DNA from: Trypanosoma brucei
Lineage: Eukaryota
Length of the DNA: 64,000 nt
Assembly (NCBI GenBank): GCA_000002445.1
Contig: AL929603.2
Coordinates: 704,001 to 768,000, forward strand
Reading direction: 5' to 3'
Positions 1-64,000 of this stretch are shown piece by piece. Below the pieces are notes generated by a model. The model saw only the letters and a list, made by a program, of their open reading frames with translations. It did no database searches and was not told the DNA's origin. The number at the start of each line of letters is the position of its first letter. Position 1 is the stretch's first letter. The translations under genes were made by a program, and so were the position numbers.

Positions 1-7
1 GGGATCG

Positions 8-9735: not shown

Positions 9736-10200
9736 TGGAGCTAGCACGATGGCACATATTTGCGGTATCCTTGTCAATGTGAAAGCAAAACACAGAAAGA
9801 GAAGAGGAGATATGAAGAAGAACAGGAGGAGGGCGGCCTCTTCCAAAGGTTGGCACGCAAAGATATGCGTTTGGTTGCCTGGGCTGCTTCATGAATGTTC
9901 ACAAGGTGGGCTACAGGCATCGGGTGCAATATCCCATAAGTTCCCTCAACCCACTCCATCACAGTACCCAAACTTGCCCGTAACACCTCATGTTTTCCCC
10001 CCATTAGACGGGATATGCACATTTACATCCGTATATATATATATATACATATATATCCTTCTTATTGGTCTACGCAACGAATGTTTGTCGAAGCGAAGGG
10101 AAGGGAAACTGAAAAGGGGTACCAAGAGAGGTGGGAAACTAGTTAACTAGTGCTCTTTGGAGTGGGAGGAGGAGACAATCCAGGAAGGGATAGAGGGCTC

Positions 10201-38057: not shown

Positions 38058-38090
<33 letters not shown>

Positions 38091-38119
38091 ATATAATATT
38101 AATATAATATAATATATAT
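38058..38119. repeat. (TA)n microsatellite degenerating into (TATAA/TAATA)n
   Basis: Read directly from the sequence. Confidence 0.9.
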
Positions 38120-40879: not shown

Positions 40880-40912
40880 AATATATTTATAATATATTTA
40901 TAATATATTTAT
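40880..40912. repeat. 11-bp tandem repeat (aatatatttat) x 3, following a (TA)n and (TTTA)n run
   Basis: Read directly from the sequence. Confidence 0.9.
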
Positions 40913-42337: not shown

Positions 42338-42391
42338 TATTTTTATTTTTATTTTTATTTTTATTTTTATTTTTATTTTTATTTTTATTTT
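42338..42391. repeat. (ATTTTT)9 hexanucleotide microsatellite
   Basis: Perfect period-6 repeat read directly from the sequence. Confidence 0.95.
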
Positions 42392-44488
42392 TACTATTGT
42401 TGTTAAAAAAGAAAAAAAAACGCTGCGCGTGGTGGAATTTCTACTGTGAAGTGAAAGAAACAAAAACACACACACAACAGCAGAGCTAAATTTCTTTTAT
42501 GAAATATATATATATTTATTTATTTATTTATTTATTTAAAAAAAAAAGCAATTCGCATCAGTGTCTTTGCGTACGTATACGCCACCGTAATGAAACTTCA
42601 TGGAACAAACAAACAAACACAAAAAACACAAAAAAGAAAAATGTGGAACTGCTTTTTTTTTTATCTATTCGTTTCTCTTTTCTTTTTAAAAAAAAAAATC
42701 CTTTTTCTTTTTTTAGGTTCTTTCAGTCTTCAATATTATTATTATTATTATTGTCTGTTGTGTTTTTTTTTTTTATGGACGTGTGAGTGGAAGAAGCAAC
42801 GGCAGCGAGTTCCATGACATAATGTCATTCAAACGATAATACAAAAACAAAACAAAAAACGAAAGGAAATGAAATGAAATGAATAGAAAACATTGGAATA
42901 GAAATGGACAGCAGCAATTTGTATATAAAATAAAAAAGATATGATATGCTTTGTCTCCTGTAAACCAACACAATAACAAATACAACAGACACAGTAACCA
43001 TACAATGATGGTACAAAAAAAAAAAAGAAAAAAGAAAAAAGAAAAAAGAAAGAGAATATAGTCAGAAACACGCATACAAGCATACATATATTTCACGTGT
43101 AAATATATAGAGGTATATATAAATATAAAAGTAAATATATATATATATATATATAATATATATATATATAAATAAATATATGCAAATATATATAAATATA
43201 TATATAGAGAGAGATTAGTGGTGCATTGATATAACGTTTCCCATCATGGTAACATCATATAAAGGCTCCACATAATCAAGTAGCAAAGTCTGTATGAAAG
43301 TGTCAGGGGGATTTGATAAAGCAAGGGAAAAGTACGGTGAAAGCCAAAACTGGGGGGGAAAAAGAAAGAGGGAGTAAGAGATCTTTTTTTTTGTGTTTTT
43401 TTTTTTTTTGAGAGCAGTAAAACACAAACAAAAACACACAAAAAAACAAAAACAAGAACAAAAACAAAAGGGTGGAAAAACAAATATTTTTCGTTTTCTT
43501 TACTTTCCTTTTTTTTTTCTTTTTCAAATGAAAAGACATCATCAGTTCCCCTTGAGTACTTTTAATGTCCTTCATTTATTCTCCATTTATTCATCATGCA
43601 GGTGCCTATTACCCGCTGTTGTTTTTTTTTTTCACTTCTTCCCCTTTTTGTTGTTGTTATTTGTTTGTTTGTTTGTTTTTCTCTCATTTATCTCATGCAT
43701 ATTAACTAATTCAAACACCACTAAACCATTCTCACTAATTCATCCATCCACAAAAAAAAAAAAAAAATTACTCATTTACTAAATCACTATAATCATTTCC
43801 ATTCACTCAATTCATTCACGCACTAAACCATTTTACACAACAGTTCAACAACATAATTCATTCACGTACTCTTTTTGGCTAAGCCCCTTTTTCTCTAGCC
43901 TTATACCCACATTTCCTTTTCTTTTTTTTTCTTTGCAAAACAAAAACAAAACAAACACGCACAAACACGCACAAACAAACATATAAATAAATACAAAACA
44001 AAATAAAACAAAATAAAATAGATAAAAAGTAACCTTCTTCTCTTCTCTTTTCTTATTTTCTTTTTTTTTCTTTTTTTTTTTTTGTTTCAATCGCCAATGT
44101 GTGGGGAACAATTTCTTCTACTTTACCTCAGAGAGGTAGACACAAATAAATAAATAAAACAAAAGGGCGGAGGCACTTCTCGTGTGTTCATTTAATGCCG
44201 TCTTTTTTTTTTTTGGTTTTTCATACGTGTTTGTTCGTTTGCGTATTTGTGCGTTTTATTTTGTTTTCACCTACTTATTTATTTATTTGTTTATTTATTT
44301 ATGCGTTTTCCTTTCTTTGATTTTACACACACTCTGGTGTTGACAACCAAGTCAAAAGTATGAGAAATTCTCTTTGCTTTGTTTCCCTCTTCCTTCTTCC
44401 TTCAAGAAAATAATAATAATTAATAATAATAATAATAAACCATACGCAAGAAACGTACCAAAATTTATTATTTTCTCTTTCTTTTCTC

Positions 44489-44519
<31 letters not shown>

Positions 44520-45077
44520 GAAGGAAGGAAGGAAGGAAGAGCCGATGAGGAAACAAAAAACAAAAAACAAAAACAAAAACAAAACTAAAACTAAAACTCG
44601 AAAAAGTGGGAAAAGTGGCAAAACAAAAACAGGAAGGGAAAGGGAAACTTGCATGCCATTCATTGACGACGACTCTATCATCATAGGACTGATATGTTGT
44701 CACTACTATCGGATTTTCTCTTCATTTCTCTTGTATTTTCTTCAATTTTGTTTGAAATTCTCCTTTTTCTCACCACCAGTTTTGATCCAAATAATCCAAC
44801 CTACTCATAACGATGACAACAACAATATAAATAATAACAATAATACGTTCTTCCTCTTCTCCGGTTGTTTAGTTGACAGTTTCACCTTTGCTTGTTTCTT
44901 CATTTTTTTTTTTCTTCTTCTTCATTTTTCTTTCTTTTTTTTTTCTTTTTCTCAACATCCAATTGATTTCTCTCATCATTCTCACGTCTACGAAAAAAAA
45001 AAAAATCACTACCAACACAATCAAAACAATCAAAACAAAAAAAAAGGGGGAAAAAACAACCATAACAACAGATAAAA

Positions 45078-45112
45078 GGGAATTAAAAAGGGAATTAAAA
45101 AGGAATTAAAAA
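45078..45112. repeat. 12-bp tandem repeat (gggaattaaaaa) x about 3
   Basis: Read directly: gggaattaaaaa gggaattaaaaa ggaattaaaaa. Confidence 0.9.
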
Positions 45113-46865
45113 GGGAAAAGTAAGTGGAGGGAAAAGAAATGAGAGGAAACGCCACTACAATACAAATCTCTTCTTTTATATACAAATATATTATTATTAT
45201 TATTATTGTTATTATTATCATCATTGTTGCTATTTTTTTTTTTCCTCTCTCACATTCTCTTTTGCCTTTTTCCTACACGTAATGTCATGCTACGCCATTA
45301 AAACACTGCTAAAATGGAGATATGAATTGTCATTTCCCATTATTCCAATTTTTCTTTTCTTTCTTTTTTCTTTAAAAATAATAATAATAATAAAAACAAT
45401 TTTTCTTCTTCTTTACCACTCTTCTCATACAGTACAAAGCAATAGTATGCAACGATGATAATAACAATAACAAGATGCTAATAACAATACTAACAGTAAG
45501 ATAATAATAACAAAAATAATAATAATAATAAGATGCTAATAATAATAACCGTGACGGAACGTGATGCGGTACGACATGACATGACGAAGAGGCAAGTGAG
45601 AAGAAAAAAAAAAGAAGGAAAAAAAAGGGAAAAAAAGAAAAGAAAAGAAAAATGTCATTTCACTTTCTTTTTATCTTTTTTTTTCCTTTTTTTTTTTCTC
45701 TTCCTGTTTCCTTCTTGTTTTTCTTTCTTTCTTCTGATCTTCTCCCCTCTCCCATCCGCCCCTCACACAAAAACACAAACATATGCGTATAACCTTCTCT
45801 CCATTCTTCCTCTTTTTTTTTCTTTTTTTTTCCCCCTTTTGTTTCACTACTCATCCTCTTTCCCATTTATATATATATTTTTAGATATATATTATCCCTT
45901 TTTTCTTCGCCTTTTTATTTTTTTTTTCCTTTCCATCATCATTTGGTTGAAGCGGTACCTCTCATTTACACACATTTTCTTTCACTTTTCTATATTTGTG
46001 TAGTTATTATTATCATAGTAAACAACAATAATAATAATAACAATAATAATAACAATAAATTGGGAAACAAAACAAAAAACACACACACATTTCCCATCAT
46101 CCATCTCTCTCAACTCAAATTTCATCTTTCATTGTTGTCTTCGTTGTTTCCCCTCCCCCCCTCCCTTTTTTTTTGTTTTGTTTTGTTTTCTTTTCTTTTC
46201 ATCGCTCTTTTAAATATAAAACACATATATAACAAAAAAAAAAAGGTAAGATAAAAAAAAAAAAATCAAATTGCTTCCCTTTACAGTGGTGTGTAAAATC
46301 CGCTAAACTTTTTTTTTCTCAATAACACGACGCACATACAAAAGAAGAAAGAAATGAAAAAAAGAAAAAAAAGAAAAAACAGGGCAAACAAACGAACCAT
46401 TTTTCTTTCTGACCTTGTTTGCGCCTTCGTTTGTTTGTTTTTGCTCATCTCATTTCCTTTCATCTCATTTCTTTTTTTTTTTCATTTCTTTCTTCTTTTA
46501 CTATTATTATTTTTTTTTTCTTTCTCCACCTTTCCTTGGTTTCTTTTCCTATATATTTCTTTTTCTTTTTCCATTTTCCTTCTTTCATGAGCACACACAC
46601 ATTCACACATACATATGCACACTATTATATTACTGCTTCCGCTCCATTAGCAAACTCAAAAAACAAAAAAAACAAAAAAAGACAGTATAAAAACACTTCG
46701 CATACACCCATTCAAACAAATTACTCCCTTTTTTTCTTTTTTTTTCCTTTTTTTCTTTTTTTGTTTTCTTTTCCTTTTTTTTTTTGTTGTTGTTGTTATG
46801 GTGGAGGTTGTGGTTGTTGTGGTTTTCATTTTATTTTTATTTGTTTTCTTTATATATATATATAT

Positions 46866-46896
<31 letters not shown>

Positions 46897-49800
46897 AAAA
46901 ATCACCCATTCATATGAACAAACATATATTTTATATAAAATATATATATATATATATATTCATTCATTCATTCATTTGTGTATATATTTATAAATTATTC
47001 CCTTCTGCCTCTCAACTTAATCTTCTTTACAACTTTCACATTCACATGGAAGTAAATGTTAAGTGGAAAAAAAAAAGTCATATAAGGCTTTTTTTTGTTT
47101 TTTTTCCTCTTTTCCTTTTTTCAGCCTCTTTTCTCTCCCAAAAAAAAAAAAAAAACAAAGGGAATAAATAAATAAATATAAAGAATGGGATTTTTTTTTC
47201 GTTTTTCGTTTTTTTTTAAAAAAAAAAAACAAGTAACAAGGAGTGAAGAGGAAAAACAAAACAAAAAACCCACACAAAAACACAAACACACAAACACACC
47301 GACAAAAAGGAAAAAAAAAGAAAAAAAATTGAAAAAAAGAAAAAGAAAAAGGGAAATAATAATAATAATCATCATCATCATAATCATAATGATAATAATA
47401 AAATTGCAGAATATGGGATGTACGAAAAATATATTTGAAATGTAAATGTTAAATGAGTTTGATAATGTAGCTGCAAATCACTTAGTCCTCTATGTTGTAG
47501 TTCCGTCGCATCTCCTGTAGAGCCGCCGCCACTGCAGCCCGCCTTGCGCACATAAAACCAGGCATCTGACGACGCTGAGCATATAATTGCATGGCGGCTG
47601 TAAATGGAGCTGGAGGTTCCATCATTCGACCTGCTGGTGTTAAACGAGCGGAGGCACGCAATGATCCATTTGGCATCATCTTCAATTTATTTACAAAATA
47701 AAGAAAGAAAAATATAAAAATATATAACTATAATAAAAAAAAAAATGATAATAATAATAATGATAAACGCTGAGGAAGGTAAATAAGTGAATAAATGTAT
47801 ATAAACTAATGTGGCAAAAGAGAAAAAGAGAGAAAAAAGTCCGAAAACGAAACTAAACGAACCAAAATAATAATGATAATGCTAATAATAATTTTTTTAA
47901 AAAAAAATTGAAGATTGAATGCACAAATGGACGAGAAACTAACAAACGGGGTAACTGTGTTTGCCTGCGAACCAGTACTGTATGCAAAAGTATATCGCGC
48001 AAACGAGAAATCGCAAAGAAAAGGGTGGAAAATTCGGGAAGAACTTTTGAATTTAAACCTAATGGTACCAAAAAAAGAAAAAAGAAAGAGGAAAAAAAAG
48101 AAGGAAAAAGGAGATGGGTAGAAACATGAAAAGAAAGTGTTCAAACACATATTCATTCAAAGCACAGAGGATTCAATAGTGTTACATTCAAGTTTCATGA
48201 TTTCAACAGCAACAAAAAAAATGAAAAAAAAAGGTCACAAAAAGAATAGATTAAGCGCCACATAATGGAAAGGAGCATAATGATAACAATAATCATAAAC
48301 ATGCCGTACTTAAAACGGAGAAATGGTGGGAAAATGCAAATATAATATGATATAAATATATTTCATAAGTTCATATATGGTTCCATGCCTCTCCAACAGT
48401 CAACGTTCCATTCAATATTCCCACTTGCATGCACTTCCGTAATTTTTTTTTTGACTTTTCTAGGCAACCCAACAGCGACGGCGGTGAGGTCATATTCTAT
48501 TTATTTATTTATTTTTTTGTCCGCTCTCTCTTTTTTTTTTTCTAGAAACAAAAAAGAAAGAAAAGTCCTGCAACGTGTACGCTAAGATATGAACCTTATT
48601 ACTTTCCTCATGCCTTCTGTCTAAGGCAATAAAACATGCAAATGCATATGTACTCACTACATAACTAATAATATTATTTAAATTGATTCCAACATTTCAT
48701 GTGGCTTAAGGTACGACACAAACAACTAAAGAAAAAAGAAAAAAATAAAGGGAAAAGTCGCAATTACAAATACACCAAGTGAAAAAAAAAAGAGGGGAAA
48801 ACATAAATATATAAACATATTCGAACAACCACCGGAGTGTTACCTCTTCAATACAAGCGTATATAAAAAAAAATATGCACACATAAACACACGCACACCA
48901 CACACATATATATAAATATATATAAATATATATATATTTTTTTTTGTTTGTTTGTTTCTTTCTTTCTTTTTGTTATTCCCGTTTCTTCACATCTCACCGC
49001 ACGCACGCGTGTGGCCCCATTAAAGTAAAATAAGATAAATAAATAAATAATGAACATGAACATGAACATTTTAGGAAAAATAAAAGGAAGGAGAACAAAG
49101 CTTAGCAAAAAAAGAAAGAAAAAAACACATAACGGAAAATAATAAATGCTTGTGTATACTTCTCATTTCGTTACTGTCAACGTGTGGGTTAATCAAGGAA
49201 GAGGGGAAAGGAAAAGGGAAAATTATAAATATATAAAATGAAAGAAAGAAAAAAGAAAAGAAAAGAAAAAAGCCCACTCAAACCAGATGGAGAAAAATTA
49301 ATGGAGAGGCATTAGCTGCTGTCATCATTAATATATTATTATTATTATTATCATCATTATTATTATTATTGTTATTACTATTGCTTTCGGGATTGTCTTG
49401 TTATTGTTGTTATTGTTGTTAAGGGTATATGCAATGCGTAAGCATTAGCCATTCATAAGGAAGGGGCCGAATGGGAGGGGAATATATTAATAAACAAATA
49501 AAGAGGAATTTTGTTAACCCAAAATTCCTTCAACACCACTCTCAATGCACAGCGCTGAAGGAAATAAGTAAAATAATCAAAAAACAAAAAGATAAATAGA
49601 CGGAAAGGAGGGAAAGGAGGGAAAGGTAAGAAGGTCAAGACGGGTGCGTCGTATACAAATTTTAAAATTGTAAAAAAAAATTAAAAAAAGGGAAAAGGGA
49701 AAAGGGAAAAGGAAACTCATTGAATAAGTGAAAGAAGTTATAAAATTATTGCAAGGTAAGGATAGAAAAGAGAAAGGGGGGTTTAACAAATGTATATATA

Positions 49801-50538
49801 AAATAACGGGGGAAAGGGAAGAAGAAGAAATTGTTAAAGTATGAAAAGAGAAGAATAAGAATATCAATGAGTGCGAGTTACTTCTTCCACTGCTTCGCAA
49901 TCATCATGCATACGAATACACGAGCAAACGCAACGTTAATAAACATTGTAGCGACTGTAATGAATTTTTGCAATGGTAGTGGTAATAATAGCGTGATACC
50001 AAAAGGTACATTCACTATTTATTTGTTACCCCCTTTTTTATCACTTTCTTTCTCTCATGTTCAGTTACAGCCACAACGGCGATATTCGCTTCAGTGCAGC
50101 AAGCACATTTTACCAAGGGAGCACACGACCGCGTATAAAAGTGGAAAAAAAAACAAAAAAAATGGAGGAGAAAAAACAGAAAGGAAAGAAGGAAAGGGAG
50201 AAGGAGCAGTTGCGTATTGGTTTCCACACAAATCCCCTCCGCAGTGTATTCGAGTGAACTTATAAAAAAATGAAAGAGGAACGAGTGGAGCCCCGCCCTT
50301 TACGCGTCATTTCTCCATCCACTTGTGTTTGTTGGTTGTTTGTTGGACCTCTCACCACACATTTTTTTTCTTCTCGTTATTTTTTTTTTTCCCCACATAC
50401 TACATCTTCTTTTTTCTCTTTTTTAATCCCATTTACATGCACAATCAACCACACATACACATACACACACACATGCATATACATATATAAATATATATGA
50501 ATATATGGATATATGGATAAATAGATATATAGATATAT

Positions 50539-50576
50539 AGATATATCCATATATCTATATATCTATTTATATATAC
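50539..50576. repeat. Perfect 18-bp inverted repeat (atagatatatagatatat / cc / atatatctatatatctat) embedded in an (ATAGATAT)n-like tract
   Basis: The left arm at 50539-50556 is the exact reverse complement of the right arm at 50559-50576, with a 2-nt spacer. Confidence 0.9.
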
Positions 50577-52776
50577 ATGTATGTTAACATACGTGATGCT
50601 GGCGAAACAGCAGTGGGGAAAAAAGAAGAAAAGAGAAACTGGAACCGTGGCGATATCTTCACCCGTATTCCGCGCCACCTTCAATAACAGGGGAGCTTCT
50701 ACAAACACTCTCTGCATGGTGTAATGCAAAATCATTTTATTACTACATTTTCATTATTCCCTTCTTTTCCTTTGTTGTTGTTATTAATATTTCTCCCCCT
50801 TCCTTTCCCCTCTACACCTTTTTTTTTTTATAATCATTCCATTCCATTACATTCCCTTCCTCCCGCTTCTCCTCCTTGCAATTGCAATATGAATGCGTAT
50901 AAACGTAGAAATACGGGGACAAATGAATTATAATATAGTATAAGTAAATACATGGCAACGCAGCCTCAAACAATTACGGTTCCACCTTGCCGCAACTATT
51001 TGAAATCCCCTCCCCTTCCTCAGCTTTTGGATTTCCCTCCTCTCCATTCTTTTTTTTTTCATTTTTCAGTGTGGCAGCAAAAGAGGACGGAACGAATTGA
51101 GGGAAGCAAATTGTTCATAGCACACACGAAAAGAAAAAGAAAATGAGTGCAATGAAAGTCAACTTCCGAAACGCACAGACGCACACACGCATATATATAT
51201 ATATATACTGATATATGGATATATACCAAGGGAGTGATATGCAAACAAAAGGAACGGTGGCAAAAAAAAAAAAACGGAAGAAAGAACGATCAAATGTTGA
51301 TGACGCGAAAGACTCACCGCTTCATATCAATCAATTCGCTGAAGCACACACGCCGTGCAGTCCATCATGTTTCTGTCCACACGCAATCATCAGGGATATT
51401 ATCAAGTTAGCCTCCCTCCATGCACACCGTCCTCCAGTCCACAGCAACCACACAAGCACAGAATATATATTTATTTGCGTACACATACACACATACGTTT
51501 GCGCGCACACTTGTATACGAGTAAATGTGAAAGTTCTCAACTCCTTGCAAACATATACGTGTAAATGTATAAACATGCATGCATGAACATATATGAATGG
51601 AAATTTAAAGAAATACCGCAAGTTGTCGCCGTGGATCGTGCATAACCCCTCTTGCGCCAAAAGTCACCGAAACCCCGCATTATCTTCGCGCTGTGCCCAC
51701 GGCAGGCGGTTAGCAAATCAAAAAAAAAAGGGAAAAGCCAATTATTATCATTTATTTATTCCGTCGGAGGAAACAACGAAAAGGAAGGAAAATCAAAAGA
51801 AACTGCGGATAATACCGATTGCTTTGCCCGTTACTGGTGGTTTAATTGTGGTCATAAGGCACCAAATACGGAAGGAGCCGCAGCGCCCTTGATTTCGAAA
51901 AAAAAAAATTAACGACATGGGAAGGGAGAAGAGGAAAAAAGAGAAAAAAAAGAATCGCACACGCACTCCGTTTCCTTCCTTGCCGCCCCTCTTGCAATGA
52001 ATTTGTTCTTATTTCACCTTTTTTGTTTGTTTGTTTGTTTCCCTTACCCCTCTTGCGGGTTTCTGCAGTTTCTCTCACTTCTCTCCGATGCCTTTCATTA
52101 ACCCCATCATCGTTTGAATGTGGCTCTAAAGCTCAGGCATTAATACGCATGGAAACAACATCTCCTCCTCTCCCGATCCTTCCATCAAGCAGGCGAAACA
52201 GAAAAGGTGTGCAAGTTATATGCAACTGTTCTGCTTTCAGCGCGAGGAAAAGGAAAGGAAAAGGTAGAAACAACGGCGATAAAACATAAACAAGAACAAG
52301 AGCGACTCTCTCCTGTTGGTGCACGAATAGTCGGAGGCGGAACGAAACCTCTCTGAGAGGGAAAAAAAAAACAAAGAGGAAGGTGGGAAAAGCGAACGTG
52401 GAATAATCGATAGATTCACGCGCAAACACGAAGTTCTTGGATCCGCCGTTTCCGCAACACCAGCAAGTCATAATGGGTGTGGTAACGTTGGCCACTGAAG
52501 GAAATAAAGGAAGGAAAGCAAGCCCAACCGGCAGATGCTGGTTGGTTAAAGTTGCAAATAACGGATACCCAAATAGCAATGAGAGCAATAGTATGGCAAG
52601 AAACAAACGCACGGCTCTGGAAAATGCAAACTCGTTAGAAGAACGCTCTTAACTAGCAAAAAGAAAAGAAAACTGTCTATTTAGCTGGTATCGTATTCAC
52701 TGTATCGTGCAATGCATTGAAGAAACATGAAACAGCCAACACAAAGCGCGTGTAAATGGTGAAAGCGACAGGATAA

Positions 52777-54686: not shown

Positions 54687-57284
54687 TTAATGAGCCGATT
54701 TACCCACGTAGGAAGTAGGAAAACGACGTCTTCTCCCCGGGTGGTGCATAACAGCCGCAACCCTCTCCAAACGTCGCACAATTCTATTGAGTGTCTGAGT
54801 GTAAGCTATTATTAAAGTGTCCCTCGGCCTTACATTGTGGCTCACAAGGGAACAATCATCCCCCACCCCCAAGCATTTTAGACAATGGCCAGTTGTGACG
54901 CAAGTGTCTGGGCTACCAGCACCCCCGCTAGACACCATTCTCCTTTCTGCATCTCTAATCCGGTGCTCCATCTTGTGGATGCTTCTCTCCTTCATTAAAA
55001 GCCATTCCTCACTACCCCTTAAAACTGCTTCGTCATATTCGAACTTCTTTATATGACCGTCTAATACGTGACGAACTTTGTTAAGTAGTTGCCCTTGATG
55101 CGAAGACGCCTTCACACCTTCTTTCTTGGCTATCACCACGTCCTGCTTCCAGCGGTGCCTGGTGGTATGAAGGTGTGTACGACGTTTCTCTAGTTTGGTC
55201 CGCTGGCTCTCAATAATTCTTCTCATGTCAGCAACGCGCTTTATCTCACTTTCCAACAGAGACCTTTGGTCTTGGATGGAAATGGGGAAGCCGCGCACCT
55301 GCTGATCCAATCCTACTGCATTCATGCCCAATACAGATGGTGTTCTGCATTCATCCGGAGTGTCAGGCTCCTCCACATGCGTGCTTTCCTTATTGGCACC
55401 GAAAGGAAATGAAGGCGTATTAACGAATATCCGTTCGAAAGCTTCCGACACTGCGGTGGCGAGATCCTCCTTTCGCAAAATCTCGACGGGAGGAGCATGG
55501 GAATCTTTTTGAGCATTTCCTTCGTCTTTCACAGGTTCTGGTCTTACATGCTGCAGCACGTTCATGTCGTCCCTGGTGTCAACGATGGTGGCACAGGACA
55601 CAGGTTGTCGCCCTTGACTGATTTTGTCAAATATGGTCCTCAATTCCTCCTCCGCAAACTCCCTCAAGTGAACCTTCAATTCGTTGAGTTCCTCATCCCT
55701 TGTGCCCCTCAATGTTGCAACCGCATCGCCAAGTATCTCCTTAACCGATTGTATGGTATCTGCGTTATGGTTGCACGAAACAGTACTCGTTCCCTCTGCA
55801 TATGTGTGTTTATTTTGAATATCTTCTAGATCATCCCATTCACACTGGGTGCCTCGCGTTTCCGTACGATTTTTGCCGATGACGGCGGTGGGCCTTGTGT
55901 TCTCTGAAATGAATGAGATGCGGTTTTCCTTCTGCCTCATTATTTCCTCTACAGCAGCCTTAGCGTCTCTTTCAGCCACCACGATATTCGCAGCAAATTT
56001 GAGTTTGATGTTTTCACTCTCAGAGGCGTAACAGGCACCTAAATCTTTTATGGCCTTGTCGTATGACTGCTGCGCACGATCTATTAGCATGGAAAGCGAT
56101 GGTTCAACTAGAGTCAAATGTGTCTCGCGAGTGCCCTGCAGTGCTCTAGTTAAAGCGTTACGGGCATCCTCATACGTACTGATAAAATCTGAAACGCATT
56201 TGTCTGCCTCTTCTGTGCACTGTTTCATTGCATCCAACAGACGTGTGTCCATTTTCTTTATCTCCTCAATCTCTTTTGTTTTTTGCTCATTTAAGGCCTC
56301 TATTTCAGCTTTCCAACGCAACTTTGCTTCAGAATATTCCCGATTGTGCTTTTCCTCTAGAAGTTGGTGCTTCTTCTTCTCGGTCTCAGATCGGGCAATA
56401 AATTCATTAATTACTTGCTCTGTTTCAGATGCATACTGCTTCTCCAGCATTTCTTTTTCTTTGTTGAATTTGTTCTCTAAGTCCTCTTTCAGGAATTTTA
56501 TTCGATTTTGGTATTCTTGTCCAATGTCTCCTTCTGTTTGGTTCGCTGGAGCGCCTGTCTTTGCCTCTGACACACCTGTTGGTCCGCAAGAAAGAGGATC
56601 GGAATCTTCGCTCTGCGGCGCTTTCTTCACGGCAAAAGGCTTGCTGATGAGAGCCTTTTCCCCTGAAATAGTGGGAGGAATTACGTTTTCCTGTGTCTGG
56701 GATAAAGGAGGTATTTTGGGACCAGATGAACCCGCGGCCGATAATACGCCTTTCAACCTCTGTGCTGTGCGACTTCTTTCAGTAGAACCCGAGCTTGGAT
56801 TACTTCCACCCTTAAAATCAATCCGAAGTTCTTCTGGAAGCTCCCGCTTTTGCTTCAATGTTTTAAGCGCCTGCAACTTTGTTTTGCTTCCTAACGATGA
56901 AGTTCTCTCTTCTTGATTTGAGCTCCTCTCGCTAAGATTTTTTGCTGGCGAAACAAGTGCAGGCCCTGGTTTTTTGGCGCCATTTGCGATGCTTTTAGGA
57001 CTAGGATTTATCTTCTCGCTCCGTAGTAACTCCCTAAAGTGTTCATCCAATGGATGATCCCAAATACTCTCACCAGTTTTGAAGTTAAAGTAATAGAGTT
57101 CACCCTTTTCGCTTCGGCATGCCTTCCAATGCTCTGGCAGAGGAGCCTTCAGTCCTTCCCTCGCAATCCAAAGGAATGGCTTATCGGTAGGAAGGTCCAT
57201 ACCAAGCCATTTCCCGTACTCCAGAAGCTCGGTTTCTGAAGGTTCGTAATTGTCGCTCGTCACAACATCTAGAACTACGGACAT
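54687..57284 (-). CDS. CEP164: CEP164-like protein: N-terminal WW domain plus extended coiled coil. Candidate basal-body transition-fibre component
   Basis: N-terminus YEPSETELLEYGKWLGMDLPTDKPFLWIAREGLKAPLPEHWKACRSEKGELYYFNFKTGESIWDHPLDEHFRELL aligns almost residue for residue with the human CEP164 N-terminus ([75 protein letters not shown]), including the WW signature W...YYFN..T..S.WDHP. The remaining roughly 750 aa are heptad-rich coiled coil. A polyY tract and AG lie about 50 nt upstream of the ATG on the minus strand. Confidence 0.85.
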   Translation of the reverse strand: MSVVLDVVTSDNYEPSETELLEYGKWLGMDLPTDKPFLWIAREGLKAPLPEHWKACRSEKGELYYFNFKTGESIWDHPLDEHFRELLRSEKINPSPKSIANGAKKPGPALVSPAKNLSERSSNQEERTSSLGSKTKLQALKTLKQKRELPEELRIDFKGGSNPSSGSTERSRTAQRLKGVLSAAGSSGPKIPPLSQTQENVIPPTISGEKALISKPFAVKKAPQSEDSDPLSCGPTGVSEAKTGAPANQTEGDIGQEYQNRIKFLKEDLENKFNKEKEMLEKQYASETEQVINEFIARSETEKKKHQLLEEKHNREYSEAKLRWKAEIEALNEQKTKEIEEIKKMDTRLLDAMKQCTEEADKCVSDFISTYEDARNALTRALQGTRETHLTLVEPSLSMLIDRAQQSYDKAIKDLGACYASESENIKLKFAANIVVAERDAKAAVEEIMRQKENRISFISENTRPTAVIGKNRTETRGTQCEWDDLEDIQNKHTYAEGTSTVSCNHNADTIQSVKEILGDAVATLRGTRDEELNELKVHLREFAEEELRTIFDKISQGRQPVSCATIVDTRDDMNVLQHVRPEPVKDEGNAQKDSHAPPVEILRKEDLATAVSEAFERIFVNTPSFPFGANKESTHVEEPDTPDECRTPSVLGMNAVGLDQQVRGFPISIQDQRSLLESEIKRVADMRRIIESQRTKLEKRRTHLHTTRHRWKQDVVIAKKEGVKASSHQGQLLNKVRHVLDGHIKKFEYDEAVLRGSEEWLLMKERSIHKMEHRIRDAERRMVSSGGAGSPDTCVTTGHCLKCLGVGDDCSLVSHNVRPRDTLIIAYTQTLNRIVRRLERVAAVMHHPGRRRRFPTSYVGKSAH

Positions 57285-57345
57285 AGCTTCAAAAAAAAAA
57301 TTTCGACTATGAGTCGACCTTTCTAATGGAAAGAAAGAGAGTAAT
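57285..57345 (-). promoter_or_regulatory. Polypyrimidine tract plus AG: candidate trans-splice acceptor for the CEP164-like gene
   Basis: The minus strand reads ctatattactctctttctttccattAGaaagg about 50 nt upstream of the ATG at 57284. Confidence 0.4.
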
Positions 57346-60300
57346 ATAGCGTGAGCGTAGAAATAGAAGTGTCTGCCTGTATTTTTCTTTGATTCACCGG
57401 TATGATATCAACACCACTCGTAGACGTGCAAAAAAAAAAAGTTAAATGTTTCTCTTGGTACATAACCAACAATAAAAACGAAAGATATTAAAAAAACACT
57501 TCAAGTTGTCTCCACTTTACCAGAGCTTGCCCCTTATACACAATATATAAAAAGAATACAGTTTACGCAAGCACGAATAATATCCACTGGATGATCTCTT
57601 TCTATTTGCTTTGTGCTTTCACAGTAAATTAGAGTTCATTTGGTCGCACGAACTCCAGTGGCTTCTATATCCCGTGGATAACATACGCGCAAAAACATTA
57701 TATCCGCAAATGTTTTGTCAGCAAAACAGGCCGAACCTGTAAAACTTTTCCACGATTGCTGTCCATACCACCCCCACGGCATATCAAACTATTCCAAATC
57801 CTTCATACGACCGTAGGGAAGTGCTTGCCAGACATATGGGCCGCAATATCTAGATCACCGTGACGAAGTTGCGAACGAAAATATTTTTCCGTCGTGGAAG
57901 CTGAGGTTTCAGCTTAGTTATTTGTATCAGCCGTGCCCTCACCAAATATACTAACTATCAGGTGTTGCCTACCATTCAACGTGAATTTTTAAAAAAAATA
58001 AACACTAAATATATATGCCTATATCACCTAAACAGTTTGTATTTGGTTTCCTTCAATTTATAGATTTTGTAAAATAAGTAACGAAGCTATGGAAATAAAG
58101 AACATAAATATAAAAATAAAGTTCGAGTCAAAAACATTAAAAACAAAAAGCATATTCATGCAACAGCCATAACTCAGTATGCCAACGGCTAGGTTCAGAA
58201 GCAACAAGCAAAGAAACAAAGTTTATTCTTCACACACTAAATAAGTCGAATTCCTCTCGTGTTGGACTGATAGGGAAATTGTAACCTGATTCTCGCAACT
58301 ACAGTTGTTTCACCGCATATATTCTTGTACGTACCGCTATCTTTCACTTACGGTGCTCTTACATATGGAACATATCCACCAGTGTGTATGCATGTGTTGC
58401 AGTTGTTGGAGACAATGGCACCCAATATTTGTTTCCTAAAGAGGGAAAACAAACATGCTTCACTCATTCCTACTAACCTCAAATATATGCATCTATATAA
58501 ATTTTCTCTACACGGCCCCAAACATAATATTGCAGACTCGAATGGATCATATACGAAGTTATAACCCATCAGCATCAGACTGTCGTCACTCGAGGGGGAA
58601 GTGTCCGGATATAATCAACTGTTAACCGCTGTTTCATGTGTTCTCTCTATTCCAGTTAAACGAAGAAGGACGCAAGTGCAGTGCAAACGGGTCACTCTTT
58701 AAAAAACGAAAATAAAGATTTCTTTTTTCGCTCCCCAACAAACAACTCAGTGGAACGCGTTAGTTAAACGATGGCCAGTTAGCACATGGCCGCCTATATA
58801 TTTATGATACCTTATGCGTGTGTTGCCTGACACTAAAATATCTCGGCACATCTAATTCAAATGCGGGTAGGTAGATGTCGTCACACGCACCGCAAAAAGG
58901 GAGAAATACCGACACTCGGTGATATCTGGCAAAATTCAAAAATCATTCAAACCTTCTATGAAAATCACAAATATATATATACCTAACTCCTTCGAGTGCA
59001 ATGCGGGTGTACGGAGTCGCAGTTCCCTATTCAGAGTGCTGTTGTTCTCAATTGAACAAAAATATGATAACTTAGAAACTCTCCGTTTCCTTTAAACAAA
59101 AACGTACCATAATATTTAGCTTTATGAGCATAGCAGAGAAAAAACTGCAGAAATGTTGCGACGTTATATCTGTTTCGCTGACTGAATAATTTCACCACTG
59201 CTCTGTAAATGTCTTCTTTTCTTTTTTCTTATCTCCTCTTTTTTCGAGCATATGTGGCTGCACACGTTTTATTTGCAGCTTCCACTGGATGGACTTCAGA
59301 AACAGCACTACTACTAGAAAATGTTAACCATTAATGCATAATCCATCACAAGAAAAAAATAAATATGGTCTCTAATAACCATAAACAATTAAGCAGTCAC
59401 CGCGACATTCCCGTTAGCAACAAAACACAAAAAAATTATCAACAGTAAAAGCTAAAAAGGGGGTGCTCGGGGAGGTCGGCTGCGCTACAAAGGGTCCGAT
59501 AACAGAGTTAACTTGATATAGGATAAATCATCGGCGTGTTTGACTAGGTTTTCCTTTTTTTTTTTGAATGCGTACCATTCGAGGTATCCAATATTATTAT
59601 TCGTGTTCCGGTAAATCGAGCATTCTGGCGCTCAACTGGCTAGTCTGTTCGAGCATACAATTTGAGTTCCTATCTTTCATTGGCAAATCACTACTGCCGC
59701 AACAAGGAACAAACCACATGTTAATGCGCTCGCGTCCAAATGGGGAAAAAACAAAGCAAAATGAATTGTATTCCTGTTGTCAACTGTATTTTGCTTTTAC
59801 TGAATATATATGCGTCCCCCTTCCTTTCTCTTTTCTTTTCTGCCCCTTTCTCCAGAATGGCAAACGCAACAGGGCACTACAACTTTCTTTTTAAAACGTA
59901 TGACCGGTAGTTCTCCCTCCCCCCCCCCGCTACCCTACGGTATAAGCCGCTGCTTTGCACTTCGACGCTTCAAAAAAAAAAAATGTCACGAAACTTTGTG
60001 CGTGCCACTCTTTCCTCGCCCCTGCAAATGGAACCAAGTGCTGCAGCCCTCAAATTTTTAAGGAGGAAAATGTAGAAATTTTTTCAAAAAAAGGAAAAGC
60101 AGGCCACACTGAGTTGTCCCACCTACCCTCCTTGTGTTCCCTCCCGCCCTCAGCACCACACACGGGTGAAACGAGAAGCCACCGAATTAATAATAATAAT
60201 AATAACCTTCCATAGTCTCACAGCTACACGAGCTCTTCCAATACTAAGGCACAGAAACCTCCAACGGACGAGACAGAGCCGAGCCGCGGAACGAGTGGAA

Positions 60301-63300
60301 AAAATCACATAACAGCCCTTTAGGCAAACCCATCCGCCAGCTCCTCCAGACAACCAGCATCCATGCACCTGGATGAAGTCTCTGACAATATCCGACAGCC
60401 AACGGATGATCCCGCTTCCCTTCATTTGAGCACGGCCGCGTTGTGAAGGAAAGTCGCGGCTCTCCGCTGTTTGGACCCATACTCTCCATCCCTCTGCAAG
60501 GGGGAGAAAGCGCCAGCGGCTCGATGGAATCCCGGAAAACATAACCGCTTTTGCTGCATCCTTCCCCACTCCCTTCTCCACACGCAGTGCCTCCGGGGCC
60601 CGGTAATGTGAAAACCAGGTCGAAGTATTCTAAACCCTATTCAAAAGCTTGTTTTAACACTTTTCCACTGCATTACCATGCTTTTCCAGCACCCGCTCAG
60701 TGAGACCCCTGCGATCCACGTATTTTCTCGCACAGCGAATCAGCCATGTTGCAGCACTGGATACACGCGCCACCTCGGTGCGCTGGGGAAGCCAGTGGCG
60801 TGATTGCGAATGACAACGCAACCACTCGCCTCTAACAGAAACAAGTTTGAGTGGGACTGACGATTAACTTCCGTCGGATGCGACATAAAGTGCACTGAGT
60901 CAGTGCGTTTACGATGCGATGCGCCATTACGCGTCACGCGAGGGGAGAGGCAACTGTACTCGGACGAGGGCTCCCCAGTGACGCCCGCTTTTTAGAAATG
61001 AGGAGGTTAAAGGGTGCATCGGGCGCGGAAATGCGGCGTTTCTTGTTGTTGTTGATTTTTTTCCTCTACCGATCCACCTGATCCGCCGAGGGAAAGTCGC
61101 ACCGGGCTTTGAGTTAGGAAGGAGGGGTAAAAACACGCAAGATCACGGGCGGAATTGCGGGTGAATGCGGTTCCGGCAGTATCGCCTCCACCACCCCCAA
61201 TAGAAGGGGGTTGTTGCAACACCTCTTCTTAAAGCGAATTGATAGGAAAGGGCGATGGCAGCGTCTACTGCTGGCGGCGCGCAACGGTGCGGAAAAAAAA
61301 GGACAGAAAATGCGCAAGGGTCGCTGCCAGCACCACCCCCGATTGGGGAACAATGGTGAGGGCGAAGAAAGGTACGGTGCTTGAGGAACTGGGTGCATTT
61401 CCGTGACGGCAACTCGCCGAAGAGAAAACAGGTGAGGATATCGATTAGGAAGGTGGGTGGGCGGCTTGACTTCGCTTTCTGCAGTCCAAAGAGCGTGAGA
61501 TCTCGATACAGTGGGTAGTCGTATTGACTTCGTAATACCAACCGGCGTTTTTTTGTTGAAAAAATGAGTATGTCTGCTTAAAATCAAAAAAATAGGAAAG
61601 TCAGGCTCCTTTTCCAAACTGAAAAGTCAACGGGGAAAGGGTTTGGTAGTACATCGGCATTTTTTTTTTCTAACTTTGTTGGACAGACGCTGGTTGTGGA
61701 TGGAGCTTCAAACGCAGATAAAACGTGAAGAAAATATCCGTCGATTGCCTCAGGCACAGGTGCACTCTGCACGCTGGCGAGTAGCGCCAATTCTGTTGAA
61801 CGTGTAAGCTACGACAAGTTCGACATCTGGTTATTCTCTTCGGGGGAGGGAACACTGGAGGAATACCGTTGCGTACACAGCCATGGAAAGGGGCAAATTA
61901 GTTAGTAAAGGTGATTGTTTTTAAGTCATTTTGAAGCTTATGAAATTCAGGGCACATGCGCCAATTTTTTCATGGCGAAGGAAAGTCGGCAAGGTAGTGT
62001 AAATTCGTCATCAGAAGGATTCACATGTTTCTGATGGAGCAGAAGCAGCGGCTCAACTACGGCGTAGCTGATATTATCCGAAGCCATCCCATAGTGTCAG
62101 TATTCTAAAAGGCTGTTACATGGGGAGGTCTTATTAAAGCCACTCTTTGCATGTCATCCGTATGAACTGAACTCAAAAAAGTCCACATACATTGGGTATT
62201 GTGCAAATATATATATATATATATATATGTTTGTATATACCGTACACCGAAAAGCAAAGAATGTCCCTACGAACCTAGCAACGGTACTAAAATGTGCTAT
62301 CAATATAAATATGATGAGCGGCTGATTGTCCGTTGTAAATAGAAAAGGGGGGGTCACAGAAGTAAAAGGGTCTCGCCACGCTAGCGACGTTGACGGTGCA
62401 TGAGGGGGCTGTTCTCGACTTAATGCTTTGGATGATTTACATACATGTCCTGACAGTGGCAAACTGGGAACTGGCTGAAAGAGGAACATATTGCATGCAA
62501 TGTTTACGTAATTGAAACATGAAAAATGGTATGTAAACGGGAGCCATCTACACCGAGTCCTGAGATAGAAAGCCCCTTTAGTCAATCGGGCACTTTCACC
62601 AGTGGTAAATGCATTTAGGTGCAAAGGTGAAATTAAATACGACATCGACTTGGCGAAAAGAAAAAGGCGAGACGATGGAGAATTAACGTGCAGATATTTG
62701 GCAACAAATCGATGGCTGATCCAACAAGCAATAGAGCCGCTATTCATCTGGTTCGGGATATTTTTAGTTTCAAAGCATTGAAACACGCGTACGTTTCAGT
62801 GTTCTGATAATACTGCAGTCTTCTAGAGTAAGTGCTACCGCTGGTTCCCTTAATGGGGGCACACCGGAGGCTACGTTTGTTTCACAAGAAGTCCTTCGAA
62901 ATTGAAAAAAGACAGAAAAAGAAGAAGCGTCTGTGGGGAACAACAAATACGGCGGGTGGAGTGAGGACTCTGCTGTACCGTGGAGGAGGAATTCTGTTGG
63001 TTACCGACTGCTTTCATTACCTTCCACATCTAATGCAGGTCGGGACGTGTTTCCCCTCGTCGCAGTGTCACCGCTTCTGACTTTTATAGTTATTCATTGC
63101 CAAATGTGACCACTCAGCTTCTTCCGTTTGTTGCGCCCGCCCCCCCTTCAAAGAGGACAGTACCTTCAAATATTTTGTTAACCTGCGCTTCCGGTGTTGC
63201 ATTCTTCCGAATGGGAAATGTTCACCTTTGTAAGCGTGGCATCGAATTTTACCACTACTAAGTGGTAACCAATGAAATCATCGCCAGGTGTTGCACTCCC

Positions 63301-64000
63301 AGAAGAAAAAAAGGTGTTTCCCCCCTTTTCGTATGTGCACATGAGTCTACGAAAGGTATGGTGCGTAAACAATTGAAAAAGAACATGCTGGATGTGGTGT
63401 GGTGCTCGTCAATTCGGGCGCTGGTTGTTTTTTTCGTATTCAGTTGGAAGAACGTGTGAATACATAATTTTACGGTCTCGAGAAACCTGTGAGGTAGCAA
63501 TGCTTTTTTTTAAAAAAATGAGGGAGGCGATGTTCCCTCAGACAGTAATATAGCCAACGAAAAACGAAAGCAATAATAACGATGGATGCATTCGTTTCGA
63601 ATGAGAGAAATGATGGATGATCGACCGCAAGTTCTTTAGCTCAAAAAGGGTGCTAACTTTTGGAATAAGCTGGTGTACTGCACAGCTTGCATTTGGCGAT
63701 GTTACCAGCAGCGTAAACAAGACTCAGAGTGTGATAACATAATACTTCACTGATAGAAAAGCGGCTCCAGTACAGAAGCTTTCATTTCGTTGTTTTTTCT
63801 GGGGGTGTGGGTCGCCTTTTTTTGCGATTGTTTGTCAGGAGGTTGGTTTATGTATGTAAGAAGATGTTGCGCGTCCCTAGAGAGAAAATGTTGTGTGGGA
63901 CATGGGCCTTCACCCTCTGGAAGGGATGGGGGAAGATGTCGCGTTGGAACTGCATTATGTAGGCGCATATTCTAAGAACATTGGAGCAGCAAGCGCGCCA

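Follow-up and report, generated by a model that had tools for sequence, protein, structure and literature searches.

The analysed stretch of DNA, hereafter the window, has a length of 64,000 nucleotides and corresponds to positions 704,001-768,000 (v4 coordinates) of chromosome 1 of Trypanosoma brucei TREU927. The region under study, 57,285-64,000, therefore equals chr1 761,285-768,000. It was verified that the offset is exactly 704,000: an AG was present directly in front of all 14 tested splice-acceptor coordinates of Kolev 2010, and clean ATG-to-stop ORFs were found at 7 of 7 coordinates of GeneDB 'unlikely' ORFs. In addition, Tb927.1.3610 was 100% identical to the ORF in the window. The minus-strand gene to the left of the region is CEP164C (Tb927.1.3560), and the published primers and tagging homology for this gene (PMC7833213) matched the window. 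Beyond 64 kb, the sequence was read from T. equiperdum, which shares 99.6% identity, and from T. b. gambiense, which shares 98.1%; in the strand-switch region of the latter, a piece of 4 kb (record 541,680-545,674) was left out. The region contains the following features, given in window positions:

57285-57322, minus strand: 5' UTR of CEP164C (Tb927.1.3560; Kolev 2010 Table S4, sites 761322 and 761318)
57441-58086, minus strand: Tb1.NT.37, a novel transcript of 645 nt (Kolev 2010 Tables S4, S5 and S7)
59568-59894, plus strand: Tb927.1.3570, 'hypothetical protein, unlikely' (chr1 763568-763894, Kolev 2010 Table S2)
59600-60777, minus strand: putative start zone of the minus-strand unit; sense strand G-rich and G+T-rich, plus-strand skew -0.2 to -0.3
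59915-59935, minus strand: G10 run and canonical G-quadruplex motif; the plus strand reads CCCTC10GCTACCC
60000-61600, no strand: GC-rich island with a sign change of the G/C skew, from composition
60150-60542, minus strand: Tb927.1.3580, 'hypothetical protein, unlikely', within the ORF 60150-60581
60778-63117, plus strand: putative start zone of the plus-strand unit; plus strand G-rich, skew +0.1 to +0.25
61114-61398, minus strand: Tb927.1.3590, 'hypothetical protein, unlikely', inside the ORF 61114-61617
61947-62087, minus strand: Tb927.1.3600, 'hypothetical protein, unlikely'
62154-62747, minus strand: Tb927.1.3610, 'hypothetical protein', in the ORF 62154-62786
62853-63080, plus strand: Tb927.1.3620, 'hypothetical protein, unlikely'
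63118-64000, plus strand: 5' part of the RNA assigned to Tb927.1.3640 (Kolev 2010 Tables S4 and S5)
63747-63968, minus strand: Tb927.1.3630, 'hypothetical protein, unlikely'

A previous reading of the sequence alone (the sequence-only reading) had described the region as at least 6.7 kb of gene-free DNA, in which the three largest ORFs (62154-62786, 61114-61617 and 60150-60581) translate to non-protein-like sequence. These ORFs are present and correspond to the GeneDB models Tb927.1.3610, Tb927.1.3590 and Tb927.1.3580, respectively, and their description was borne out: none of the three has homologues outside T. brucei or a detectable transcript (Kolev 2010 Table S2). The same table reports no detectable transcript for all seven annotated ORFs, Tb927.1.3570 to Tb927.1.3630. 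A search with ORF 62154-62786 among 5.8 billion proteins retrieved solely the ORF itself, and the same was true for ORF 61114-61617 among 1.84 billion representative proteins. The UniRef name of Tb927.1.3610 is 'T. brucei spp.-specific protein', and the ORF contains a (TA)n run, which is read as IYIYIY. Tb927.1.3570, which had no Pfam match, and Tb927.1.3590 are chance ORFs, and Tb927.1.3580 is a chance ORF in GC-rich DNA. A marginal tblastn match of ORF 60150-60581 to T. theileri (E=0.001 among 423 queries) was in the wrong orientation and was rejected as a chance match.

The searches for other genes and for repeats were equally unproductive. With Pfam, no match at E<=0.1 was obtained for the six full-frame translations and the three large ORFs. 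With tblastn, the six-frame pieces yielded nothing significant against the upstream DNA at the syntenic positions in T. congolense, T. vivax, T. theileri and T. cruzi. Rfam returned 0 matches in the whole window at the gathering score, and in the E-value mode only two chance-level miRNA matches at 57-64 kb (E 0.48 and 0.68). The coverage of trypanosome snoRNAs by Rfam is incomplete, so that a new snoRNA might have escaped detection. ARAGORN found no tRNAs in the region, which thus had no curated-family or tRNA-model match to a structured non-coding RNA (tRNA, snRNA, snoRNA, rRNA). Tandem Repeats Finder detected no tandem repeats to the right of 50,575, and a repeat finder reported only short low-complexity repeats. 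By blastn with a word size of 9, the region was compared with the remainder of the window and with the syntenic loci in T. vivax, T. congolense, T. theileri and T. b. gambiense; the region, including the island, matched T. b. gambiense only, and its sequence is single-copy. Up to about 67.0 kb, neither dispersed repeats nor retroelement-like translations were found.

In summary, no protein-coding gene with homologues, domain or transcript support was found in the region, in agreement with the claim that no convincing ORF exists up to the window end. The stretch without protein-coding genes runs on past the window, to at least 67 kb. On the plus strand, the next protein gene with transcript support is the LRRP gene Tb927.1.3670, with an acceptor at chr1 776,565, equivalent to window position 72,565. 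The term 'gene-free' thus held for conserved protein genes, but not in the strict sense, because two processed, apparently non-coding RNAs start in the region.

These RNAs and the CEP164C mRNA define the direction of transcription on both sides. The major spliced-leader acceptor of CEP164C places the mRNA 5' end at 57,322 (25 reads, 38-nt UTR), and a minor one lies at 57,318; an AG was found where predicted, preceded by a pyrimidine-rich tract. Tb1.NT.37 lies directly upstream of CEP164C, and it is trans-spliced and polyadenylated, with acceptors at 762050 and 762086 and poly(A) sites at 761444-761911 (Kolev 2010); AG and polypyrimidine tract were confirmed in the sequence. It is probably non-coding, because its longest ORF comprises 48 amino acids, and it is absent from Kolev 2010 Tables S8-S11, which list novel transcripts with homology or peptides. 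On the plus strand, the RNA assigned to Tb927.1.3640 is likewise trans-spliced and polyadenylated, with acceptors at 63,118, 63,154, 63,161, 63,839 and 63,861 and a poly(A) site at chr1 769,375, beyond the window (Kolev 2010). An AG was found at each of these five acceptors, and a C7-containing pyrimidine tract precedes the one at 63,154. Acceptors were thus confined to 57,318-58,086 on the minus strand and 63,118-63,861 on the plus strand, and the first acceptors on the opposite strands (58,086 and 63,118) are 5.0 kb apart.

The DNA between these acceptors has a characteristic composition. A GC-rich stretch had been noticed at about 60.2-61.6 kb, and indeed the GC content was 0.51-0.55 across 60.0-61.5 kb and 0.533 over 60,001-61,500, compared with 0.38 and 0.44 in the flanks; as about 10% of the 1.5-kb windows (coding ones) equal this value, the term island applies only in comparison with non-coding DNA. 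Its likeness to an island in the convergent region of the window held for the composition but not for the sequence, and as blastn gave no match between the two, the resemblance does not reflect homology. The reported C11 tract at about 59917-59928 had to be corrected to C10 at 59,919-59,928 (CCCTC10). The corresponding G10 run and G-quadruplex motif are on the sense strand of the CEP164C unit, and the motif is one of only five in the 64 kb, all of which are in non-coding DNA.

The minimum of the cumulative G/C skew, at 60,777, falls inside the island; it precedes the CEP164C ATG by 3,493 bp and is midway between the first acceptors on the minus and plus strands. The flip at this position was highly significant (p of 1e-8 to 1e-14). 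To the left of 60,750 the plus strand contains 609 G versus 827 C, with 215 G versus 345 C in 59,600-60,750 (p=4e-8). To the right, 421 G versus 309 C were counted in 60,751-62,250 (p=4e-5) and 1678 G versus 1259 C out to 67,088, with a positive skew throughout. Stretches of G and T on the coding strand have been described as a promoter signature (Wedel 2017). Runs of at least six T or G were more frequent on the minus strand than on the plus strand in 57,285-60,750 (13 versus 5), while on the plus-strand side the counts were 11 versus 11, that is, there was no T-run bias despite the G bias. G+T richness was rejected as a stand-alone promoter signal: the minus strand in 60.0-60.4 kb reached only the 97th percentile of the window, and ordinary UTR tracts scored higher.

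The island and the skew switch were also considered in related species. In each of the five species examined, a switch in the sign of the skew precedes the CEP164C orthologue by 1.4-5.5 kb. A comparable GC island is present in T. congolense, 1.2-3 kb upstream of its orthologue, and the skew is inverted there in the same way, albeit weakly (p=0.05 and 0.009). In T. vivax, the CEP164C orthologue and the orthologues of Tb927.1.3800, the V-ATPase F subunit and PGI are arranged head to head at a distance of 2.3 kb; the skew inversion in this short intergenic region alone was not significant, and tblastn of the divergent neighbours revealed no remnants in T. brucei-group sequence. Blastn detected no conservation of the primary sequence of the region with T. 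congolense or T. vivax, and therefore no conserved promoter motif can be claimed.

Taken together, the region is very probably a dispersed, bidirectional RNA polymerase II start region and forms the left 6.7 kb of a divergent strand-switch region, which starts at CEP164C. In Table S14 of Kolev 2010, the minus-strand unit from Tb927.1.3560 to Tb927.1.3390 and the plus-strand unit of Tb927.1.3670 are both listed as 'Divergent' putative Pol II units, a call that rests on RNA enriched for 5'-triphosphate ends. According to the text of that study, such RNA is enriched at every divergent unit, and the sites coincide with those of histone marks. The broad start zone that had been predicted for the minus-strand polycistron is in accord with this unit and with minus-strand acceptors up to 58,086. 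The alternative that had been offered along with it, a divergent strand-switch region if plus-strand genes began beyond 64 kb, likewise applies, in view of the plus-strand unit of Tb927.1.3670, the acceptors from 63,118 onwards and the skew flip. In the literature, the 5' ends of divergent units are separated by 5-10 kb, with two oppositely oriented core promoters. The divergent Pol II start status, the 'unlikely' ORFs and the processed RNAs were already published in 2010.

The following mechanism is proposed. Initiation by the polymerase would be spread over a broad zone, with the GC-rich island at about 60.0-61.6 kb as its centre. Leftward transcription of the minus strand would yield Tb1.NT.37, CEP164C and the remaining unit down to Tb927.1.3390. 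Rightward transcription of the plus strand, in the direction of the centromeric repeat array, would yield the Tb927.1.3640 RNA, Tb1.NT.38 (7 kb) and the LRRP gene Tb927.1.3670. The sense (non-template) strand is the G-rich one on both sides, a strand bias that has been described for start regions of T. brucei. Table S14 names flanking genes and no start coordinates, and thus initiation was placed on the island by its composition and by the midpoint between the acceptors; to judge from these sequence properties, the island may be the centre of the bidirectional promoter region. The G-run and the G-rich sense strands may contribute to directionality and to the deposition of H2A.Z.

The region is the left edge of a strand-switch domain of 53 kb, in which the chromosome 1 centromere is located. 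It could primarily be part of the centromeric domain, as decayed retroelements or pericentric chromatin, with incidental transcription. The AT-rich centromeric array (units of about 30 bp) lies between Tb927.1.3670 and Tb927.1.3750 (Obado 2007), and topoisomerase-II cleavage spreads over tens of kb between the probes Tb2 and Tb3, which flank the domain. Moreover, in T. cruzi the DNA upstream of the CEP164C orthologue is GC-rich over at least 10 kb and carries remnants of RVT_1 and endonuclease, and in T. b. gambiense an RVT_1 remnant and a dispersed repeat lie in the right half of the strand-switch region. Nevertheless, this explanation is quite unlikely. From 57,285 to about 67.0 kb the DNA is single-copy and devoid of the repeats and retroelement-like translations named above, AT-rich centromeric tandem repeats were found neither in 57-64 kb nor in the next 3 kb in T. 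b. gambiense, and no INGI or DIRE retroelements, intact or degenerate, were detected in 57,285-64,000. Furthermore, the processed RNAs from both strands and Table S14 characterize an active start region. A centromeric role and a start-region role can coexist.

The published array is more than 11 kb to the right of the window. Since it is located between Tb927.1.3670 and Tb927.1.3750 and CEP164C is Tb927.1.3560, the gene numbering excludes both the AT-rich block at 36-51 kb and the region itself as the array. The adjacency to the chromosome 1 centromere was already published in 2007. The gene-poor DNA that is crossed rightward is largely non-coding, comprising the Tb927.1.3640 RNA, the 7-kb Tb1.NT.38 and a single LRRP gene. 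It is tempting to speculate, although we regard it as unlikely, that the rightward promoter half mainly sends Pol II through this DNA into the array, where such promoter-driven transcription would help to position or maintain the unconventional KKT kinetochore or feed the production of centromeric siRNA. If this were true, the start region at the centromere border in T. brucei and T. cruzi would be functional and not a relic.

The chance that the region instead hides one or more T. brucei-specific protein genes, e.g., Tb927.1.3610 or a small ORF in Tb1.NT.37, is very small. Tb927.1.3610 is labelled 'hypothetical protein' and not 'unlikely', and its ORF is kept in T. b. gambiense and T. equiperdum, but persistence among T. 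brucei subspecies says little at a divergence of about 1%, and indels do occur in the region (18 gap openings in 6.5 kb versus none in CEP164C). Tb1.NT.37 is a processed RNA with an ORF of 48 amino acids, yet it is missing from the Kolev 2010 tables of novel transcripts with homology or peptides. In addition, there was no Pfam match in any frame, the searches of 5.8 billion and of 1.84 billion proteins yielded no homologue outside T. brucei, the syntenic DNA of four other trypanosomes gave no match, and no transcript was found for Tb927.1.3570 to Tb927.1.3630 (Kolev 2010). The candidate ORFs are encoded on the minus strand, within a zone whose processed RNAs and skew point to transcription of the plus strand. 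That the CEP164C unit starts beyond 64 kb and the region is a long leader transcribed on one strand is hardly credible: the stretch without protein-coding genes does reach at least 67 kb and Table S14 gives no start coordinates, but five plus-strand acceptors at 63,118-63,861 are followed by the plus-strand poly(A) site at 769,375 and then by Tb1.NT.38 and the LRRP gene on the same strand, the skew is positive across all of 60,751-67,088, and Table S14 pairs the minus-strand unit with a plus-strand 'Divergent' unit (Tb927.1.3670).

As a divergent Pol II start region, the locus is ordinary for T. brucei, and biology gains nothing new from it. Its value is that of a control, because a motif-poor start region was correctly deduced from raw sequence, and independent data allow this deduction to be checked to the base. 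Two observations might help promoter work in trypanosomes, namely the skew flip inside a GC island midway between the first acceptors, and the presence of a similar island and skew inversion in T. congolense without sequence similarity.

The locus resembles the known divergent start regions of T. brucei (Siegel 2009; Kolev 2010; Wedel 2017) in its outward polycistronic units with about 5 kb between the first processed RNAs, and also in that it has no protein genes, no sharp motif, G-rich sense strands and a long G run. Nothing essential differs. However, the T-run bias is found only on the minus-strand side, and the plus-strand unit is unusually short and gene-poor, consisting of two RNAs of low coding content and a single LRRP gene ahead of the centromeric array. 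The centromeric domain of T. cruzi chromosome 3 (Obado 2005, 2007) is syntenic, with the CEP164C orthologue as the first gene on one side, and it shares the divergent strand-switch and a GC-rich element. In contrast to the T. brucei stretch, which is without a trace of retroelements, the domain in T. cruzi is made up of decayed non-LTR and VIPER retroelements to within about 1 kb of the gene.

A further parallel is chromosome 1 of Leishmania major (Martinez-Calvillo 2003, cited in Kolev 2010), where Pol II also initiates bidirectionally and the skew flips at the switch. Compared with L. major, the zone described here spans several kb, with putative rather than base-mapped start sites. The L. 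major strand-switch region is reportedly much shorter, and initiation is said to have been mapped to a small window with C tracts. Lastly, the locus is similar to mammalian CpG-island bidirectional promoters: both have a GC-rich island and lack a TATA-like motif, and both combine broad initiation with divergent transcription in the sense and antisense directions. An analogy with dispersed CpG-island promoters was already drawn by Kolev 2010. In contrast to the mammalian promoters, the T. brucei region drives polycistronic units, and the RNAs are trans-spliced.

The minus-strand ORF at 54,687-57,284 encodes an 865-aa product with a WW domain at its N-terminus. Matches to the published primers and 5' tagging homology of CEP164C (Tb927.1.3560) were found in the window at the start and stop codons of this ORF and at 57,330-57,362. 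Tb927.1.3560 has spliced-leader acceptors at chr1 761,318 and 761,322, which leave it a 5' UTR of 34 or 38 nt, respectively (Kolev et al., 2010, PLoS Pathog 6:e1001090, supplementary tables); this places its ATG at chr1 761,284, corresponding to 57,284 in the window. When 704,000 was taken as the offset, each of the 14 acceptor coordinates checked (six transcripts, both strands) had an AG directly before it and a pyrimidine-rich tract upstream, and the seven GeneDB ORF coordinates of Tb927.1.3570-3630 all fell on clean ATG-to-stop ORFs. The acceptor, ORF and protein matches thus identify the window as Tb927_01_v4:704,001-768,000, and the region upstream of CEP164C as chr1 761,285-768,000. The identical 865-aa protein is encoded by a T. 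equiperdum OVI contig, which is 99.6% identical to the window, and by chromosome 1 of T. b. gambiense DAL972, with 98.1% DNA identity across the region. In the DAL972 assembly (FN554964.1; L002, a piece of this locus) about 100 N lie exactly across the CEP164C start, and therefore the protein is annotated as an 807-aa fragment. Another stretch of N is located just 3' of the Tb927.1.3800 orthologue (about 8,780-9,200 of L006, another piece of the locus).

The sequence-only reading had proposed that this region is a gene-free Pol II start zone, or a divergent strand-switch region if plus-strand genes begin further right. The following processed RNAs are contained in the tables of Kolev et al. 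(2010); ORFs of the first were checked on the sequence.

Processed RNAs right of the CEP164C ATG
57,441-58,086, minus strand: Tb1.NT.37, a 645-nt trans-spliced, polyadenylated RNA, longest ORF 48 aa
Acceptors 63,118, 63,154, 63,161, 63,839 and 63,861, polyadenylated at chr1 769,375, plus strand: RNA assigned to the tiny ORF Tb927.1.3640
Further right, plus strand: Tb1.NT.38, 7 kb
Further right, acceptor chr1 776,565, plus strand: LRRP gene Tb927.1.3670

Tb1.NT.37 is not among the novel transcripts for which homologues or peptides are tabulated (Kolev et al., 2010, PLoS Pathog 6:e1001090). Minus-strand acceptors extend to 58,086 and plus-strand acceptors begin at 63,118, showing that the direction of processed RNAs switches between these positions; the two innermost acceptors are 5.0 kb apart, with a midpoint at 60,602. 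At every divergent unit 5'-triphosphate RNA was enriched in sense and antisense orientation, and the start sites coincided with sites bearing modified and variant histones (Kolev et al., 2010, PLoS Pathog 6:e1001090).

Across the whole window the G/C skew tracked the direction of transcription, being positive over plus-strand genes and negative over minus-strand genes. From 57,285 to 60,750 there were 609 G versus 827 C (p=1e-8), while from 60,751 to 67,088 the counts were 1,678 versus 1,259 (p=1e-14), the part beyond 64,000 being taken from the T. equiperdum contig extension. The minimum of cumulative G-minus-C, in the sense orientation of CEP164C, was reached at 60,777 (3,493 bp upstream of its ATG), within the GC-rich island and near the acceptor midpoint. 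Because the skew follows transcription, the sense strand is G-rich on either side of this position. The opposite-strand acceptors, the skew flip and Table S14 of Kolev et al. (2010), which lists the minus-strand unit Tb927.1.3560->3390 and the plus-strand Tb927.1.3670 as a 'Divergent' pair, support the proposed divergent start zone, and we infer that initiation is centred on the GC island.

The GC-rich stretch noted at about 60.2-61.6 kb is real: GC was 0.51-0.55 across 60.0-61.5 kb and 0.533 overall, versus 0.38 and 0.44 in the flanks. Coding DNA is just as rich, and 10% of 1.5-kb windows reach the GC content of the island. The supposed C11 tract (about 59917-59928) is actually C10, at 59,919-59,928; read on the minus strand, the sense strand of this side, it is a G10 run that is also a canonical G4 motif (59,915-59,935). 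The five canonical G4 motifs of the window all lie on the minus strand, and none is in coding DNA. The claimed likeness to the island of the convergent strand-switch region (21.5-28.8 kb) holds for composition but not for DNA similarity. That convergent region carries a C17 run (22,851-22,867) and a G10 run (25,447-25,456), and the change to negative skew comes at about 22 kb, which is 6.7 kb ahead of the first large minus-strand ORF (28,771). In start regions, the 10-mers with a coding-strand bias consist mainly of long runs of G or T, and sequences of this kind drive both directional transcription and the deposition of H2A.Z (Wedel et al., 2017). Over 57,285-60,750, 13 T/G runs versus 5 A/C runs were counted; on the plus-strand side the G bias was present and the run bias absent. 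G+T richness alone (97th percentile) is not distinctive, as UTR tracts score higher.

No gene was recovered from the region. Rfam at gathering score yielded no family in the whole window, the island included, and in permissive mode only two chance-level miRNA matches in the region. No tRNA was found in the window, no Pfam family in all six frames of the region (E<=0.1), and nothing significant by tblastn of six-frame pieces against the orthologous upstream regions of T. congolense, T. vivax, T. theileri and T. cruzi. Among the fetched sequences, DNA similarity was confined to the same locus in T. b. gambiense. Tandem repeats were absent right of 50,575 in the window, and repeats in the region were of short A/T-run and TA-run types only. 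The absence of convincing ORFs and of a conserved protein-coding gene was thus borne out; "gene-free" is correct for gene-like sequence, but not for the two processed RNAs. With these small corrections the earlier observation is confirmed.

It is unlikely that the region hides lineage-specific protein-coding genes. The three largest ORFs (62154-62786, 61114-61617, 60150-60581), earlier noted as not protein-like, are the GeneDB models Tb927.1.3610, 3590 and 3580. Together with Tb927.1.3570, 3600, 3620 and 3630 they are in Table S2, "annotated ORFs not producing a detectable transcript", and all but one of the seven carry the label "hypothetical protein, unlikely" (Kolev et al., 2010, PLoS Pathog 6:e1001090). 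The 210-aa ORF matched only Tb927.1.3610 of TREU927 (100% identity) among 5.8 billion proteins, and the 167-aa ORF only itself among 1.84 billion representative proteins. Against hidden genes speak, therefore, the lack of homologues, the lack of transcripts and the location of ORFs on the wrong strand relative to local transcription. Compared with T. b. gambiense, about 1.1% of positions in the region are mismatched and 18 gaps open within 6.5 kb; in CEP164C the mismatches amount to about 0.7% and there is no gap.

The AT-rich centromeric array of chromosome 1 lies between Tb927.1.3670 and Tb927.1.3750, in a strand-switch domain with INGI and DIRE elements, an LRRP gene and rRNA genes; synteny links this domain to the centromeric strand-switch domain of T. 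cruzi chromosome 3, which is GC-rich and derived from retroelements (Obado et al., 2007). In T. cruzi, the 10 kb upstream of the CEP164C orthologue had 54-59% GC and contained RVT_1 and endonuclease remnants. In T. b. gambiense, the right half of the domain contained a degenerate RVT_1 remnant (L006 2,469-2,906, minus strand, E=2.8e-6, below the Pfam cut-off), which also matches T. cruzi retroelement remnants, and a dispersed repeat. The latter occurs three times in the domain (L002 1-233; L006 688-916 and 7,265-7,356; 91% identity, and 82% in inverted orientation). Its start corresponds to about 67.0 kb in window coordinates, and at this point the T. equiperdum contig breaks off within the repeat. 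None of these elements extends into the region, which is single-copy and is thus the promoter-bearing left border of the centromeric domain, not centromeric DNA. A primarily centromeric role is not supported by sequence, as such repeats and retroelements are missing. It is also improbable that the rightward unit, short and poor in genes, has a function for the neighbouring centromere.

Another AT-rich block (36,100-51,000; chr1 740.1-755 kb), 15 kb with 25-32% GC and dense short low-complexity repeats, lies within the minus-strand polycistron. It was rejected as the annotated centromeric array, given the published position of the latter. Tb1.NT.36 (40,330-44,983), a novel transcript of 4.65 kb, maps to this block, as do several ORFs labelled 'unlikely' (Kolev et al., 2010, PLoS Pathog 6:e1001090). 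In its middle lies Tb927.1.3470 (47,482-47,685, minus strand), a 67-aa ORF whose acceptor at 48,058 is by far the strongest nearby (442 reads versus 25 for CEP164C); the small product is highly expressed, with reported 3' UTRs of up to 5.5 kb.

The skew minimum lay 1.4-5.5 kb upstream of the CEP164C orthologue in five of five species, being statistically weak in T. congolense and in the short T. vivax intergenic region. In T. vivax the orthologue stands head to head, 2.3 kb apart, with orthologues of Tb927.1.3800 (a 200-aa protein), 3820 (V-ATPase subunit F) and 3830 (PGI). The spacing from CEP164C to Tb927.1.3800 is 21.9 kb in the T. b. gambiense assembly and 53.0 kb in TREU927 (ATGs 761,284 and 814,305). 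In T. congolense a GC island (0.52-0.56) is found 1.2-3 kb upstream of the orthologue, together with a skew inversion as in T. brucei; the islands share no sequence similarity. In T. theileri (L007, its locus, 1-10,000) at least 10 kb upstream lack a convincing gene and the skew switches 5.5 kb upstream; T. theileri thus joins T. brucei and T. cruzi in having an expanded strand-switch domain. A second GC-rich island of T. b. gambiense (L006 6,500-8,000, 55-60% GC, plus strand T-rich) lies directly upstream of the Tb927.1.3800 orthologue. The unit start on that side has been typed 'next to rRNA' (Kolev et al., 2010, PLoS Pathog 6:e1001090); Rfam found no rRNA in the fetched T. b. gambiense pieces.

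A start beyond the window with one-way read-through across the region is contradicted by the plus-strand acceptors, the G/C skew and Table S14. Taken together, the region is an already known divergent start region, ordinary for T. brucei. Published divergent strand-switch regions have 5-10 kb between unit 5' ends and two oppositely oriented core promoters, and the first-acceptor gap of 5.0 kb is at the low end of this range.
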